Notes under the pieces: generated by a model | What the model was told of the DNA's origin: nothing | The model's input: the letters and a program-made list of their open reading frames with translations, nothing else | Databases searched by the model: none | Part shown: piece after piece, positions 5,972 through 23,822 of the stretch | Numbering within the stretch: position 1 is the stretch's first letter | Layout of the letters: each line of letters starts with the position of its first letter | From: Escherichia phage T4 | Sequence record: OL964735.1 | Reading direction: 5' to 3' (one strand) | DNA length: 64,000 bases | Made by a program: the position numbers and the translations under genes

Positions 5972-6020
5972 AATATTTCCTCAGTATAAATATAGATATA
6001 TTTATTACTCGGAAAATAGT

Positions 6021-6638
6021 ATGTACCACTTTGTATATGAAACAACAAATCTAATAAATGGTAAAAAGTATATAGGAAAGCACTCTACTGATGACTTGAA
6101 TGATGGTTACCTTGGTTCCGGTAAGGCAATTCAGCAGGCTATAAAGAAATATGGTGAAAACAATTTCTCTAGAACAATACTAAAAGAGTTTAAAACTTCC
6201 GAAGAAGCGTACATGTATGAAGAAGAAATTATAACTCCTGAACTAATAAAAAGCAAAAATTATTATAATATGAAACCTGGTGGAATTGGTGGAATTGTTA
6301 TGACTACAGATGTTATAGCAAAGATGAAAGAATCTTCCGCTAAAAGATTTGAAAACTCACCGGGCACGGTATTAGGTAAAACTTGTTATACTAATGGAAC
6401 TAAAAATATTTTTATTAAACCTGGAGAACTTGTTCCAGAAGGATTTGTAAAAGGGATGGTTCATCCTAATAGAAAGTCCAGAAAAGGATGTAAAGTCAAA
6501 CCGACTACCACAGGAACTTTTTGGGTCAATAATGGCGCAATAAATAAATTAATACAACCAGACGGTATTATTCCCGACGGATTTATTAAAGGTCGTCTCA
6601 TGAAAAGAGATTCTAAAGGCAAATTTAGTAAGGCATAA
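6021..6638 (+). CDS. segE: GIY-YIG homing endonuclease SegE
   Basis: 205-aa ORF; GIY-YIG motif YHFVYETTN...KYIGKH...GYLGSG; freestanding between inh and uvsW. Confidence 0.75.
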   Translation: MYHFVYETTNLINGKKYIGKHSTDDLNDGYLGSGKAIQQAIKKYGENNFSRTILKEFKTSEEAYMYEEEIITPELIKSKNYYNMKPGGIGGIVMTTDVIAKMKESSAKRFENSPGTVLGKTCYTNGTKNIFIKPGELVPEGFVKGMVHPNRKSRKGCKVKPTTTGTFWVNNGAINKLIQPDGIIPDGFIKGRLMKRDSKGKFSKA

Positions 6639-9767: not shown

Positions 9768-10393
9768 TATAGTAACTCAAAGAACTCTTTGAGGCCTCTT
9801 ATTACGTGAGCATGGGTTTTTCCACACTCTGGACACTTAATTGGAACAGCCAAATAAACGGTAGGCTTTAAAAGCATATCTTTTATAGCTACAATATCTG
9901 ACTCTGTGATGATAGAATATAAATCTTCTAGTTCCTTTTCATTTAAGTCTTCAACTGGAATGCTTTCCCCGTTAGCATGAATCGTTTCTATACATGATAC
10001 TATCATGTGGGCTATATTTTTATCATCAAAAATTTTAGGGTATCGGAATTTAATTTTAATGTCACCTAGTGTATACCAGAGGTCTTCTGGTGCATCTATT
10101 TGTGTATGTAATAGATTTATATGGGTTGGTATTTCAGTTCCACAGGTGCACTTCCAGGAGTTTTCGTGATTAACTTCACCGAGAGAATGTGCCCATAAAT
10201 GAATCAACAATAGTTCTGATTCTTGGCGGTTTAAATCTTTTGCATTTGTGCAGTCTTTGATTAGCTTTTTAACAATTACTTCTACGGAACCATTATTTTT
10301 GGCAGTAATAAGTTCTAGATATTCTTTAAGCGTGAATGCGCGACAATTGATTATTTTAGAACCAACTCTCACATCAAATTTGTATTCATACAT
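9767..10393 (-). CDS. 26: Baseplate hub protein gp26
   Basis: 208-aa ORF; divergent from gene 51 across a shared late-promoter region. Confidence 0.85.
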
Positions 10394-10412
10394 ATTTAGC
10401 TCCTTTATTTAT

Positions 10413-10427
10413 CATATTTATAAATAG
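10413..10427. promoter_or_regulatory. Back-to-back late promoters for divergent genes 26 and 51
   Basis: Sequence catatTTATAAATAg contains TATAAATA on the plus strand and an overlapping TATAAATA on the minus strand. Confidence 0.55.
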
Positions 10428-10443
10428 AATAAAAGGAGCATCT

Positions 10444-11193
10444 ATGGCAAACATTATTCGTTGTAAATTACCAGATGGTGTTCATCGTTTTAAACCATTT
10501 ACGGTAGAAGATTATCGAGATTTTTTGTTAGTTCGAAACGATATAGAACATCGGTCACCACAAGAACAAAAAGAAATAATTACTGATTTAATTGATGATT
10601 ATTTTGGAGACTATCCGAAGACTTGGCAACCATTTATATTTTTGCAGGTATTTGTAGGGTCAATAGGTAAAACTAAAGTACCGGTCACATTTATATGTCC
10701 AAAATGTAAAAAAGAAAAGACAGTTCCATTTGAAATATATCAAAAAGAATTAAAGGAACCTGTTTTTGATGTAGCTAATGTTAAAATTAAATTAAAGTTT
10801 CCTTCTGAGTTTTATGAAAATAAAGCAAAGATGATTACTGAAAATATTCATTCTGTTCAAGTAGATGAAATATGGTATGATTGGAAGGAAATTAGCGAGT
10901 CCAGTCAAATAGAACTAGTTGACGCCATCGAGATAGAAACATTAGAAAAAATTCTCGATGCAATGAATCCTATTAATTTAACTCTACACATGTCATGCTG
11001 TAATAAGTACATTAAAAAATACACTGATATAGTAGACGTGTTTAAGCTATTAGTTAACCCAGATGAGATATTTACTTTTTATCAAATTAATCACACACTC
11101 GTAAAAAGTAATTATAGCTTAAATTCAATAATGAAAATGATTCCTGCCGAGCGCGGATTCGTATTAAAACTGATTGAGAAGGATAAACAATAA
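10444..11193 (+). CDS. 51: Baseplate hub assembly catalyst gp51
   Basis: 249-aa ORF (T4 gp51 is 249 aa); gene order. Confidence 0.85.
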
Positions 11194-17423: not shown

Positions 17424-19472
17424 TTATCCTTGAACGAACTTGTAAGGCATGTTTGCAATATCTATGCAAGACGCAATAATTCCAAGAGATGATTCTACTT
17501 TCTGTTTAACATTTGATGAAACAAATGATGCAAAGTCAACTCTATCTTCTATATCACCTGTCATTGTAACCAATTCACCAGTTTCCATTAAATGGTCTCC
17601 GTCATAGATTACCGATTCGGTGAGTTCTTCTGTGGTCATAACTTCAGCTTGAATAAGCTTGTTGTTAGTTTTAACTGTTCCATCATTGTAAGATGCATCG
17701 GTTATTTTATTAACTTTGACCATTAATCCACGTGGCAAAATGACTTCCATTTCATTTGAAGGCGCTAAACTTCCACCGGGTAAAACAACATTGACCTTAT
17801 CAGCCCCAGTAATAACCCATCCAATTCCAACTAAATTATCGCTAGAATTTACAAGTCCTTCATCAGTTTTATCAATAGAAACGCTTAAACGCTTTTCGTC
17901 TGGTAAAACACCTATAGATGAATCAGTCATCCAAGTACCAAAAATATTTGGATATAATGATGTTGACACAAAGTTTCTAAAATAAAAAACTCGATTTTTT
18001 ACCATTGCTTCGTATATTGAAGGTAACATTCGTTGTGAACGATACAAAGTAATACCTTTTGGTAATCGTTCACCATTTTTAAAGGCTGAATCTAAATTAT
18101 CAATAGCTTTTTCTATGTCAGATGCTGTCAAAATACTTGTACGCTCATCTGGATTATATAATCCCAAAAGAGCATTATTTATGTCTACATATCCTGAACC
18201 TACGTATTCACGAATTCCGCGTTTTTGCGCTGGTGTGTATTTAGATGAATCTTTATTTTCGACTATAGGATGTAATGACCATCCAGCGGTAAGAGCATAT
18301 CCACGTAATTCTCTTCGAATAATCTTTGTTTTTATTGCATTCCAAGAATTTTGTACTAACTCATTTGCAGCATCTTGGTTTAAATGCGAATGTTTGTTAA
18401 TATTTCTTTCAAACCAAGCACCCTTATATTTTTCTAAAGTATCATCGACGATAGAAGCAATAGTTTCTAAGGTTTTTATTGAAGTAATAGATTCTTTTCG
18501 TAATCTTTCTAAAGCTTTATTTTTTATTTCTGCGTTAATAATGGATTCTTTATCTTCAGGAATTATAGAAGCTTCTCTGAATGCCATCCCAGCTGTAACA
18601 CTGCTAAGAGCATTCTCTAGTGCAAATCCTGAAGTAGAAATTACCGTTAATTCATTAGAATCAGAAATTAAAGGCGCGTCCGCTGGTTTATTTAATTCGG
18701 CCGCTGAAGCCTCAAATTTTTGAAACATTGGTGTTTCAAATCTAGAAGATTCCAATGACTGACTTTGCGCAATTGCTCTACGGGAAATTTTAACTTTAAC
18801 GATTACAGCTTGGTCAGAACGTTTATCATTTTCTTGCGCAATAGATGCTGCAATTGCCTCATTTTTAGTTACTTGAGCCCCAGTATCTTTATTGATATAA
18901 ACATCACCGACCTTCGATTCAACTTTAGTAAAGAGCTCGGTACTAATTTCCGGAACTCCTGGAATGTCTTCTAGTGATACATTTTTGCGATGTATAAGAA
19001 TATATGCATACTTTTTATCGTAATCCCAGAGTTCCTTAAGAAGGACGTATCTACCACCTGAACGACTACGGATAAGTCTATCAGCAATAACTTGAATTTG
19101 TCGAGCTTGGCCAGCAGTTTTAGACTTAAGAATACGGAGCATACAGGCATCAATTTTATACTGGCGCATTGTTTGCATTGCAACAGTAAAAACTGAATTG
19201 ATATAATTAATTGGGCTTGGACCAAGACCTTTTAATTTAGCAATTGAACCTTTAGCAGTTAATGTAAAAGGAACAATATGCATCATTTTATCGCCCATCT
19301 TTAAATCACGATTAGTATCACCTCCAGATGTATAGGTACATAAACGAAAGCCTGGTTGTTCAATTGCATCATCAACATGAACTGAAAAAATTTGCGGTAT
19401 TTTCTTCTTTGGATATAAGTTTGTAATTGGAAGAGTAGTATCTTCGTCAAATAATTCTGTAATAAGTTCCAT
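17424..19472 (-). CDS. alt: Alt ADP-ribosyltransferase (head-packaged)
   Basis: 683-aa ORF with tandem Met at the start (T4 Alt is 682 aa, so the second Met is taken); position between 54 and gene 30. Confidence 0.85.
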   Translation of the reverse strand: MELITELFDEDTTLPITNLYPKKKIPQIFSVHVDDAIEQPGFRLCTYTSGGDTNRDLKMGDKMMHIVPFTLTAKGSIAKLKGLGPSPINYINSVFTVAMQTMRQYKIDACMLRILKSKTAGQARQIQVIADRLIRSRSGGRYVLLKELWDYDKKYAYILIHRKNVSLEDIPGVPEISTELFTKVESKVGDVYINKDTGAQVTKNEAIAASIAQENDKRSDQAVIVKVKISRRAIAQSQSLESSRFETPMFQKFEASAAELNKPADAPLISDSNELTVISTSGFALENALSSVTAGMAFREASIIPEDKESIINAEIKNKALERLRKESITSIKTLETIASIVDDTLEKYKGAWFERNINKHSHLNQDAANELVQNSWNAIKTKIIRRELRGYALTAGWSLHPIVENKDSSKYTPAQKRGIREYVGSGYVDINNALLGLYNPDERTSILTASDIEKAIDNLDSAFKNGERLPKGITLYRSQRMLPSIYEAMVKNRVFYFRNFVSTSLYPNIFGTWMTDSSIGVLPDEKRLSVSIDKTDEGLVNSSDNLVGIGWVITGADKVNVVLPGGSLAPSNEMEVILPRGLMVKVNKITDASYNDGTVKTNNKLIQAEVMTTEELTESVIYDGDHLMETGELVTMTGDIEDRVDFASFVSSNVKQKVESSLGIIASCIDIANMPYKFVQG

Positions 19473-19500
19473 CATATCCTCTCTAGTGTTTATTCTATTC

Positions 19501-21178: not shown

Positions 21179-21444
21179 TGTTCATCCTTTAGAGTTTGGT
21201 TTACAGCTCTATTATAAATCAATTCATCATTAAGCTCAGTCAAAGACCTGTGGTACGTGGTTCTAACTTTATTTCCTTGCATCCAGTGCTTGATATAAAT
21301 GAAACCTTGCTCTACACATTTTTTAAAAATTCGTTCGTCTTTTTGAGCTCGGAATTCTGGATTGCATCTAAAAAATTGATTTACGTGACCGTAATCACGT
21401 GTAGTATTACCTTCATTTTCATAAATAGTGTGAACAACAAACAT
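21175..21444 (-). CDS. 30.1: Hypothetical protein (30.1 position)
   Basis: 89-aa ORF; overlapping start and stop with neighbours. Confidence 0.55.
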   Translation of the reverse strand: MFVVHTIYENEGNTTRDYGHVNQFFRCNPEFRAQKDERIFKKCVEQGFIYIKHWMQGNKVRTTYHRSLTELNDELIYNRAVNQTLKDEQ

Positions 21445-22280
21445 TAGAATGCTCCTTGGAAAATATTATCACCACAAGTAGGTCTATTATACAAATACTC
21501 TATACCGCCGGGCTTAATATAGTTCCATGTCTGAAACGGATGCGTCTGATATGGATGATATGGATTATAAGGATTAAATCCAGGAGTTCTCCAGGTAGTG
21601 TTCCAAGGAAAAGAATCGTTTTTAATCATCTTTTCAATTACATCTTTTATAGCTTTTTCACTATCAAAACTTTCTTTATTTTCCTTTGGTGAAAAAAGCT
21701 TATTCTCTACATCGTTCCATGTATAAACTCGCTGAGCAGTTTTTGGAATATTGTCACGCTCTCCTCGAGCCATCCAATACACAGGAACACGTAATATTTC
21801 ACTCGCGTGATCGCAGTGGTGAGCGAGATCGTCAATATAACAAATTACGTTATATTTCTCTTTTGCTTTTTTGAACAACTCTTCTTTTGAAGAATCATGA
21901 CTACACATCAGTACTTCTGAGAAAGCACCAGGAAAAAGAGCATTCAAATTAAATTGACGATTTAATAGAGCGTCAATAGAATCACCCAATGCTGTAACAG
22001 CAACAAAATTATAATCTTCTTTTAATTTGTTAATTACACACAGAGCATCTTTATATGGAGACAAGTAACGAATAAAATCCGAACGATTGTATTTTTCAAT
22101 TAACTTGACGCCAAGTTCTTCATCACAGTTAAAGAGTTTACCAGGAGAAATAAATTTCTCATCTTGGATCATTTTTAAAATATGTTCTAACGGAAGATTA
22201 TATTTCTGAGCAAAATAAGGAAGGCCTGATTGCCAGCTTAAACATACTCCATCAATATCAGTTAAAATAGTAGGCTTCAT
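21444..22280 (-). CDS. 30.2: HAD-superfamily-like hydrolase with Pro/Tyr-rich C-terminal tail (30.2 position)
   Basis: 278-aa ORF; N-terminal ILTDIDGV matches HAD motif I (DxDG[TV]); C-terminal NPYNPYHPYQTHPFQ low-complexity tail. Confidence 0.55.
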   Translation of the reverse strand: MKPTILTDIDGVCLSWQSGLPYFAQKYNLPLEHILKMIQDEKFISPGKLFNCDEELGVKLIEKYNRSDFIRYLSPYKDALCVINKLKEDYNFVAVTALGDSIDALLNRQFNLNALFPGAFSEVLMCSHDSSKEELFKKAKEKYNVICYIDDLAHHCDHASEILRVPVYWMARGERDNIPKTAQRVYTWNDVENKLFSPKENKESFDSEKAIKDVIEKMIKNDSFPWNTTWRTPGFNPYNPYHPYQTHPFQTWNYIKPGGIEYLYNRPTCGDNIFQGAF

Positions 22281-22741
22281 AGAGAGTCTCTTAATAGGTT
22301 TAACACATCAATAAATTCAGCTTCGGTTAGTATTGTATCATCTTTTGTTAGACCACTAGCAATGCTGTGCTTCAAAACTTTTCCTTTCGAGGCTTGTAAT
22401 GCATCACGAAAGCCCTTGTTTTGAATCGCTGCTTCAAAATATGCATTTGTGTATAATTCTTTCCACGCCGGGGAGTATCTTGAAAACGGAACTCCAAGCC
22501 AAAAGAGGGTCCCACGGTCCTGAGCTCTAGCATAAGACCTTCCAGCTTGTTGGGCGGCAAGCCCGGATAACCCAAATATACGACGTTGTTGTTCAACATT
22601 TTTCACCTTACACCCTTGGAGGAATCCTTCAAGACCTCCAAATTGAATACCATCCATAACGAAAGGCCATTGGGCGAAATTACTTAATGCACATGATGGC
22701 CACCTAAAATTGCTTCTAATCTCTAACTCAGACATTTTCAA
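22277..22741 (-). CDS. 30.3: NADAR-family (YbiA-like) protein (30.3 position)
   Basis: 154-aa ORF; segment ALSNFAQWPFVMDGIQF...EGFLQGCKV resembles the YbiA/NADAR core DFSNFAAWPIKVDG...EHYFQAQKF (recalled from memory, not searched). Confidence 0.5.
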   Translation of the reverse strand: MKMSELEIRSNFRWPSCALSNFAQWPFVMDGIQFGGLEGFLQGCKVKNVEQQRRIFGLSGLAAQQAGRSYARAQDRGTLFWLGVPFSRYSPAWKELYTNAYFEAAIQNKGFRDALQASKGKVLKHSIASGLTKDDTILTEAEFIDVLNLLRDSL

Positions 22742-22934
22742 TGCTTATAATTTCAACATCAGCCCAATGACCATAGCAAGGAAGACGAAATTCAACTGGC
22801 CAGTTAGGGTCCTTTTCTAATATAATAGACTCAACTTGTGGTTCTTCGTGTTCATCAGTATACGGATTTTTATCTGTTACTTTATATGTGACCTTAATGT
22901 ACTGAATTCCAAAAATCTTATTAATTATATTCAT
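22728..22934 (-). CDS. Hypothetical protein (30.4 position)
   Basis: 68-aa ORF in the operon. Confidence 0.45.
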   Translation of the reverse strand: MNIINKIFGIQYIKVTYKVTDKNPYTDEHEEPQVESIILEKDPNWPVEFRLPCYGHWADVEIISIENV

Positions 22935-23128
22935 ACTAATTCCTTTAATCCGTAGATAGGAGATAATTCATCACCCATACGAAGGTCTTCATTTCCATCT
23001 ACCCAGGAAACAATATAAGCCTCTTTTATTTGAATACCACTCCATTTAAATGGAGGTAGAACCTTAGAAATTAATCCAGGTATACCAACTCCCTTTAATT
23101 CAACAGTTTGACCTAAAAAGAATTTCAT
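22931..23128 (-). CDS. Hypothetical protein (30.5 position)
   Basis: 65-aa ORF in the operon. Confidence 0.45.
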   Translation of the reverse strand: MKFFLGQTVELKGVGIPGLISKVLPPFKWSGIQIKEAYIVSWVDGNEDLRMGDELSPIYGLKELV

Positions 23129-23415
23129 TAGAACCTCATCTGAAAACCGTGCGATTTAACATTACCGCCGCCAATATCAGAAATGTTAATTTCACGCGCA
23201 ATTGAAGGGTCAATGTCAATTTCACGATTGAGTTTAGTGATAGCTAAAGTATCACGCCCATTTACAGTACGGAACTCTAAAGGACAAACCACATCAACGT
23301 AGTTTTTAATCGATTCGCTAGTAAGTTGCAAATGTGCAGGAAGGTCTTTAGGTGCCTTTGAGAAAACCACTTCACAGAAATTTTTGCGGGTATCAAAATA
23401 AGTAGTCATAAACAT
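23128..23415 (-). CDS. Hypothetical protein (30.6 position)
   Basis: 95-aa ORF in the operon. Confidence 0.45.
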   Translation of the reverse strand: MFMTTYFDTRKNFCEVVFSKAPKDLPAHLQLTSESIKNYVDVVCPLEFRTVNGRDTLAITKLNREIDIDPSIAREINISDIGGGNVKSHGFQMRF

Positions 23416-23456
23416 AATATTTTCCTCAGTAAGGGGCTGAAGCCCCTCATTTTATT

Positions 23457-23822
23457 TTAAATATCAAATTCATTAAGAACTACATCAAAGATTGCTTCAA
23501 GATGCTCAGGTTTAGCTCTGTTACTCAGAATATGACGAATCCAAGTTTTAACTAAGAGTTTACGATTAGCACCATTCCAGCAAGGATGAGTCCCTAAATC
23601 GCGTTGGCGGAAATCATCATCCAGAGCGATTTTGAAGTTGGAACCTTTCATCGTGATTGAAACCGTGATACCGTTTTCAAATCGCATATAAACGTAGTTA
23701 GGAGTCATATACTGTTCAATTTCGCATACTGATCCATTTTGATGTTTCCAGAGGCAAATAGTATCAATAGAACCTGCAATACCATTAGAAACATATTTAC
23801 GTTCAAAGTTAATGTAGTTCAT
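23457..23822 (-). CDS. Hypothetical protein (30.7 position)
   Basis: 121-aa ORF preceded by a terminator-like hairpin at 23432-23447. Confidence 0.5.
   Translation of the reverse strand: MNYINFERKYVSNGIAGSIDTICLWKHQNGSVCEIEQYMTPNYVYMRFENGITVSITMKGSNFKIALDDDFRQRDLGTHPCWNGANRKLLVKTWIRHILSNRAKPEHLEAIFDVVLNEFDI

Follow-up and report, generated by a model that had tools for sequence, protein, structure and literature searches.

The window analysed here, 64,000 nucleotides of Escherichia phage T4 (OL964735.1), contains alt (17424..19475, minus strand), one of the T4 genes for ADP-ribosyltransferases, and, about 2.8 kb upstream of it on the same strand, a small open reading frame (ORF) whose motifs recall those of E. 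coli YbiA. An earlier reading of the sequence alone had taken this ORF for a NADAR-like protein of the YbiA family and, given the presence of Alt, which is indeed found in the window, had suggested that the protein either edits ADP-ribosylation made by the phage or counters ADP-ribosylating toxins of the host. Which, if any, of these descriptions is right? The function turns out to be already known for exactly this gene, gene 30.3, through a NADAR assignment, an in vitro study of 2024, and, in 2025, both genetic and mechanistic work and a transposon screen. Database labels trail behind: the RefSeq entry reads 'hypothetical protein', the Pfam entry 'GP30.3', and the PHROGs entry 'unknown function'. 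Because public annotation lags in this way, a reader with only the sequence can rediscover the function. We are highly confident that 30.3 is adfN, a compact stand-alone NADAR enzyme that reverses the guanine ADP-ribosylation of phage DNA by DarT1. Our own analysis covers which gene this is, how its product folds, how well the residues are conserved, the restriction to phages seen in the loci sampled, and the frameshift in RB69; that the protein is an active enzyme, that it is specific for guanine, and that the gene is necessary and sufficient against DarTG1 are results of published experiments.

Positions 21400-23500 of the window are 100% identical to 127430-129530 of the T4 reference NC_000866.4, and several other T4 records match likewise. 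(The offset between window and T4 coordinates, 106,030, puts the end of the 64-kb window about 1.1 kb beyond the 168,903-bp NC_000866; since the window overruns the reference, the source record is probably a T4 assembly that is permuted differently or that wraps around an arbitrary genome start.) The ORF at 22277..22741 (minus strand), which is 154 aa long when read from a TTG, is T4 gene 30.3 and contains ALSNFAQWPFVMDGIQF and EGFLQGCKV, as had been noted earlier; the YbiA motifs that had been given for comparison were also accurate, E. coli K-12 YbiA reading DFSNFAAWPIKVDGKTWPTSEHYFQAQKF. The start of the ORF, in contrast, needs correction. The annotated 30.3 coding sequence (22277..22735, minus strand) runs from an ATG at 22735 to a TGA stop and specifies 152 aa. 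Homologs have their N-terminus at or after the Met equivalent to this ATG; the extra MK of the 154-aa version thus reflects mechanical ORF calling only, and the in-frame TTG-AAA just 5' of the ATG (22736..22741, minus strand) probably lies outside the translated protein. Within T4 the gene is tightly packed between its neighbours 30.4 and 30.2: the end of 30.4 and the ATG of 30.3 overlap by 8 nt, and the TGA of 30.3 overlaps the ATG of 30.2 (21444..22280, minus strand, 278 aa) in the ATGA at 22277-22280.

Searches that start from the T4 protein alone give little hint of a NADAR. A Pfam scan with the single gp30.3 sequence yields no NADAR match at E<=1; it yields a match to PF08010 (Phage_30_3) over the entire model, 1-138 of 138, with 237 bits against a gathering threshold of 36 bits (E=4.8e-71). 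NCBIfam gives no match, PHROGs returns PHROG 652 only, and phmmer against the sequences of the PDB finds only a chance-level match (E=0.69). In a pairwise BLASTP comparison, gp30.3 and YbiA share 33% identity over 57 residues (E=8e-6), a likeness that is above chance, yet modest. Because the relationship escapes methods that use a single sequence, it takes family profiles, hhalign, and comparison of folds to see it. Of 166 homologs that were collected, the 106 full-length ones were placed in an alignment (A1) with a mean column identity of 45%. All 106 match PF08010, and 41 of them also match the Pfam NADAR family PF08719 individually, the best with E=4.8e-7. Searched with the A1 profile, the PDB sequences give YbiA (2b3w) as the top match (E=0.013), and hhalign aligns A1 with YbiA at a probability of 94.4%. 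The NADAR profile match that had been foreseen is therefore found for 41 of the 106 family members and not for T4 gp30.3 by itself (E<=1), so that a literal rule by which the lack of a significant NADAR profile hit disproves the assignment wrongly rejects a true NADAR. At the level of sequence, gp30.3 is a predicted NADAR by virtue of profiles and transitive matches, not of its single sequence.

An AlphaFold2 model of gp30.3 built from A1 (mean pLDDT 93.5, pTM 0.89) has the YbiA-like alpha+beta architecture that characterizes the NADAR superfamily, a helical core with two small flanking beta-sheets; its first strand starts at residue 3, and a helix spans residues 138-151. The best three Foldseek matches in the PDB are YbiA (2b3w), PnNADAR of Phytophthora (8bau), and GlNADAR, a DarG1-type protein of Geobacter (8bat), all with a probability of at least 0.99. 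Below these three solved NADARs, the only significant structural matches of the model, there is a steep fall, and the remaining matches are noise; the NADAR-like fold that had been proposed is thereby borne out. (A macrodomain or an ARH-type hydrolase was considered and rejected, as no such fold appears among the structural matches of the model.) Taken together, these comparisons establish gp30.3 as a member of the NADAR superfamily (DUF1768) within a separate phage clade, PF08010.

The conserved positions of the family coincide with the NADAR active site. The invariant columns among the 106 homologs include S18, N19, E36, G37, F38, Q40, H123, and T134, and K43 is conserved in at least 90% of them, so that the catalytic residues are preserved, as the sequence-only reading required. 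In both the BLASTP and the hhalign alignments, E36 and K43 lie opposite YbiA E48 and K55 and form the E-x6-K of the core helix that is typical of NADARs; the equivalents are E43/K50 in PnNADAR and E88/K95 in the NADAR of E. coli C7 (PMC11543638). The catalytic Glu36 is encoded by the GAA at 22628..22630 and Lys43, the phosphate-coordinating catalytic residue, by the AAG at 22607..22609 (both minus strand); besides conservation and the YbiA alignment, the published substitutions E36A and K43A mark these two codons. The last strand holds a third catalytic position, which is occupied by Glu in proteins of the YbiA family and by Asp in those of the BC4488/DarG1 family (D171 in C7), and a His at this position is the signature given in the literature for phage NADARs of the gp30.3 type. 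The hhalign alignment stops at K122 opposite YbiA V124; its ungapped extension by one residue sets His123 (CAC, 22367..22369, minus strand), the clade-defining residue of the last strand, opposite YbiA E125. We infer that His123 contributes to catalysis or to specificity.

The subfamily assignment follows from the same position. All 106 homologs have His123 where the YbiA family sensu stricto has its last-strand Glu (E125 in both YbiA and PnNADAR), and it is because of this replacement that the literature classes the phage gp30.3 proteins apart. Neither is the Asp of the BC4488/DarG1 family (C7 D171) present; in addition, the T4 neighbours are 30.2 and 30.4 rather than a DarT1 gene, and the N-terminal extension of that family is absent, as the literature on AdfN also states, the alignment of the 152-aa gp30.3 with 8bat (219 residues) spanning only 130 residues. 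Since gp30.3 lacks the defining residue of both named subfamilies, it belongs to the NADAR superfamily and not to the strict YbiA family, and a published phylogeny places its clade closest to DarG1-type NADARs. Of the earlier label 'YbiA-family', then, the superfamily survives and the narrower family does not.

What the enzyme does has been worked out by others. Bioinformatic work by the Aravind group had assigned gp30.3 to the NADAR superfamily, and the earlier bioinformatic literature also pointed out the early expression of phage NADARs together with ADP-ribosyltransferases (ARTs). In 2024, gp30.3 was found to hydrolyse guanine-ADPr in vitro and not thymidine-ADPr (PMC11125620). (The methods of that paper describe the T4 'gp30.3' construct as residues 1-208, compared with the 152 aa of the T4 coding sequence; the construct may have carried extra sequence or may have come from another phage.) Gene 30.3 was then renamed adfN, for anti-DarT factor NADAR (Johannesman, Awasthi, Carlson, LeRoux, Nat Commun 2025, PMC11825919), after resistance to DarTG1 had been mapped to it through recombinants of RB69 with T2 and with T4. 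In the same study, deletion of adfN from T4 or T2 abolished plaquing on DarTG1 hosts, ectopic AdfN-T4 rescued RB69 on DarTG1, and purified AdfN stripped ADP-ribose from DarT1-modified DNA, the signal remaining with the inactive E36A control. In vivo, E36A and K43A each left a partial rescue of RB69, weakened but not abolished; truncation of the C-terminus weakened rescue, and the truncated T4 variant had lower activity. Bacterial two-hybrid assays revealed no association of AdfN with DarT1, whereas AdfA(R164H) did bind DarT1, and the thymine-specific DarTG2 was unaffected by AdfN (all PMC11825919). Finally, transposon sequencing in a 2025 preprint indicates that K-12 supports growth without 30.3, whereas insertions in the gene drop out entirely when the host carries DarTG1 (10.1101/2025.11.20.689424). 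These data uphold the second of the two earlier suggestions, a counter to host ADP-ribosylating toxins: AdfN removes the ADP-ribose that DarT1 has added, and T4 and T2 need the gene on DarTG1 hosts.

The mechanism that emerges is as follows. In a DarTG1 host, DarT1 ADP-ribosylates guanines of the infecting phage DNA and thereby blocks its replication. AdfN then hydrolyses the N-glycosidic bond that joins ADP-ribose to the guanine amino group, so that the DNA can again be replicated. The predicted active site comprises Glu36 and Lys43 of the core helix and the clade-specific His123 of the last strand, and full activity requires the C-terminal helix. Acting catalytically and without binding the toxin, AdfN thus mimics the DarG1 antitoxin as an orphan protein that the phage brings along. 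It has been described as the first antitoxin homolog of a lytic phage to serve as an enzymatic counter-defence, and it makes DNA ADP-ribosylation a contested ground between bacteria and phages.

A natural allele agrees with the published role of the C-terminus. The helix at residues 138-152 (22280..22324, minus strand; residues 138-151 in the AlphaFold2 model) is absent from the product of RB69, in which one extra T after nt 410 of 30.3 leads to a TGA and a product of 137 aa; the sequence that codes for the helix can still be read there, out of frame (RB69 allele at 10268..10681 of the retrieved RB69 locus, L009). We verified this frameshift in the sequence, and the allele correlates with the sensitivity of RB69 to DarTG1. 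In several public T-even-like phages, too (homologs P0007, P0016, P0017, and P0092), 30.3 is truncated or fused, with alleles of 86-109 aa, and in some of these the remnant is joined to Pfam domains that are not PF08010. Loss or breakage of the gene seems to be fairly frequent, a pattern that would be expected of a conditionally useful anti-defence gene.

By tblastn, the 30.3 family is present in 1510 of 50,697 phage records, with hosts that range from Escherichia to Vibrio, Sinorhizobium, and Ralstonia. In eight related loci, from phages or metagenomes, no gene annotated as DarT or ART directly adjoins the 30.3 homolog (annotated genes only were considered). In Vibrio phage K567, Sinorhizobium phage phiN3, and Ralstonia phage RSP15 the homologs sit in unrelated neighbourhoods and the adjacency to alt is not kept, while Acinetobacter phage Konradin has an Alt-like gene near its homolog. 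Two of these NADARs lie outside the Straboviridae, in RSP15, which is classified in the Ackermannviridae (5995..6513 of its locus, L008), and in the Emdodecavirus phiN3 (6007..6462 of its locus, L007); both are found among tRNA genes and genes of the RNA-repair type (RNA ligase, tRNA nucleotidyltransferase) and not by DNA ligase, a kind of neighbourhood that the literature notes for some NADARs. Two homologs of the clade that were looked up come from contigs that reach 424 kb. The contigs of 308 kb and 298 kb that carry homologs contain many small unannotated ORFs together with T4 Rnl1, Thg1, and NUDIX genes, which is phage-like content, and these metagenomic contigs of about 300 kb look like jumbo phages; no evidence of a bacterial reservoir of the gp30.3 clade was seen in the homolog contigs that were looked up.

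Other accounts of gp30.3 have to be set against a role in countering DarT1. The proteins that Alt, ModA, and ModB modify receive ADP-ribose on arginine side chains, and gp30.3 might reverse this T4-encoded ADP-ribosylation, for example to tune the modification of RNA polymerase or of other host proteins; 30.3 and alt do share an early/middle block of leftward genes, some 2.8 kb apart, and the Alt-like gene of Konradin would fit. However, in the published assays consulted, the NADARs tested, gp30.3 among them, are active on guanine-ADPr but not on thymidine-ADPr, K-12 infection does not require 30.3 and the sole phenotype reported for the gene depends on DarTG1, and the adjacency to alt is lost in K567, phiN3, and RSP15. 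A role in editing what Alt, ModA, or ModB have modified is therefore very improbable, and was rejected on account of this guanine selectivity, the lack of a DarTG1-independent phenotype, and the variable synteny; the first of the two earlier suggestions, the editing of phage-made ADP-ribosylation, found no support apart from proximity to alt. Even less credence can be given to the idea that gp30.3 is a housekeeping N-glycosidase of the YbiA type, which would not repair DNA but clear reactive intermediates of the riboflavin pathway or soluble ADP-ribose derivatives. YbiA is both the best match at the sequence level and one of the top structural matches, and one paper makes the case that ADPr derivatives of low molecular weight may be the preferred substrates of phage NADARs (PMC9503650), but the YbiA-family Glu is replaced by the invariant His123, the published phylogeny sets the clade closest to DarG1-type NADARs, and direct removal of ADP-ribose from DNA and a DarTG1-specific phenotype have already been demonstrated.

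The partial rescue that E36A and K43A retain might also mean that gp30.3, like AdfA, blocks DarT1 stoichiometrically by binding it, catalysis being incidental. Yet AdfN and DarT1 do not interact in the two-hybrid system in which AdfA(R164H) is positive, and purified AdfN clears ADPr from DNA while the E36A protein does not; with two-hybrid and enzymology data in agreement, a stoichiometric binder was rejected as extremely unlikely. Of a different kind is the proposal, compatible with the anti-DarTG1 role, that AdfN has further native substrates, such as guanine-ADPr made by other toxins or ADP-ribosylated RNA. According to the AdfN literature, the enzyme acts upon the adduct rather than upon the toxin; moreover, the family is spread over 1510 of the 50,697 phage records and a wide range of hosts, the clade-specific His and the poor activity outside T-even infection hint at an altered specificity, and the possibility is raised by the AdfN authors themselves. 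Against it, the demonstrated substrates are guanine-ADPr and DarT1 products only and the reading is speculative; we regard such substrates as possible, if doubtful. The reversal of DarT1-made guanine ADP-ribosylation by catalysis remains the preferred account.

That account must still accommodate the dependence of AdfN-T4 on context. In uninfected E. coli the toxicity of DarT1 persists in the presence of AdfN-T4 (PMC11125620), and the rescue of T5 and Bas25 by AdfN-T4 is weak. Given this inactivity in uninfected cells and weakness in T5 and Bas25, to say that the enzyme acts on DarT1-modified DNA in any context is an insufficient description. The authors of the AdfN work postulate a T-even factor behind full activity, and AdfN-T4 does seem to need a putative factor or context of this kind. 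The invariant His in place of Glu or Asp, together with the failure outside T-even infection, could stem from a changed substrate or from a dependence on a partner: AdfN-T4 might require a T-even protein or act on replication-associated DNA structures, and it might also serve further native substrates, such as the products of other guanine ADP-ribosylating toxins or ADP-ribosylated RNA. It is rather unlikely, in our estimate, that AdfN-T4 is more than a DarG1 mimic in any of these ways.

By position only, the translationally coupled gene 30.2 is a candidate partner of AdfN. It lies next to or near the 30.3 homolog in five T4-like (Straboviridae-type) phages, namely T4, RB69, WG01, Acinetobacter phage Konradin, and Klebsiella phage KPN-12i, with tblastn values of about 1e-56 in the Acinetobacter and Klebsiella T4-like phages. 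It was not found near the homologs of Vibrio K567, Sinorhizobium phiN3, or Ralstonia RSP15, and among the phage loci compared no partner is universally linked to 30.3; because it is unlinked in the distant phages, 30.2 is at best a clade-specific candidate. Its product (PHROG 420, unknown function) has no Pfam or NCBIfam match, and its N-terminus, MKPTILTDIDGV, resembles motif I of HAD phosphatases, which is a candidate reading. Coupled to 30.3 by the ATGA overlap, 30.2 yet has its own middle promoter, PM30.2, annotated within the 3' part of 30.3 (22332..22357, minus strand; GenBank X53848 553-578). A putative second gene, 30.3', is nested in 30.3 in the +1 frame (22372..22599, minus strand; 75 aa, PHROG 14037); the T4 annotation includes it and gives it a separate RBS. 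Its frame is open in T4, WG01, and CLB_P2 and is interrupted by a stop in RB69, and its residues vary freely at sites where 30.3 shows only synonymous change. Judged from these sequences, 30.3' resembles a side effect of the 30.3 reading frame more than it does a gene under constraint.

Among known systems, the closest is AdfN-T4 itself (PMC11825919), which is the same gene: the published E36/K43 numbering fits the ATG at 22735, and the only departure is the start of the 154-aa ORF at a TTG two codons upstream. DarG1, the BC4488-family antitoxin (Schuller et al., Mol Cell 2023, PMC11543638; 8bat), differs in several respects. Unlike DarG1, gp30.3 is an orphan with no adjacent DarT1, lacks the N-terminal extension (152 vs 219 aa, with 130 residues aligned), has His123 where DarG1 has a catalytic Asp, and is unable to substitute for DarG1 in uninfected cells. 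YbiA of E. coli (2b3w), the protein on which the NADAR/DUF1768 family was founded, carries Glu125 at the position of His123 in gp30.3, is encoded in the ybiA/dinG/ybiB locus under LexA control, and bears the annotation of an N-glycosidase that acts on riboflavin intermediates; the two proteins are alike in that neither rescues uninfected cells from DarT1 toxicity. AdfN-Bas32 and AdfN-Bas60, from T5-like phages and the Vequintavirinae, resemble AdfN-T4 as guanine-specific phage NADARs that reverse DarTG1 defence, but they belong to other NADAR clades and were acquired independently. They also function without phage infection, relieving DarT1 toxicity in uninfected cells and protecting T5 and Bas25, whereas AdfN-T4 is fully active only in T-even infection.
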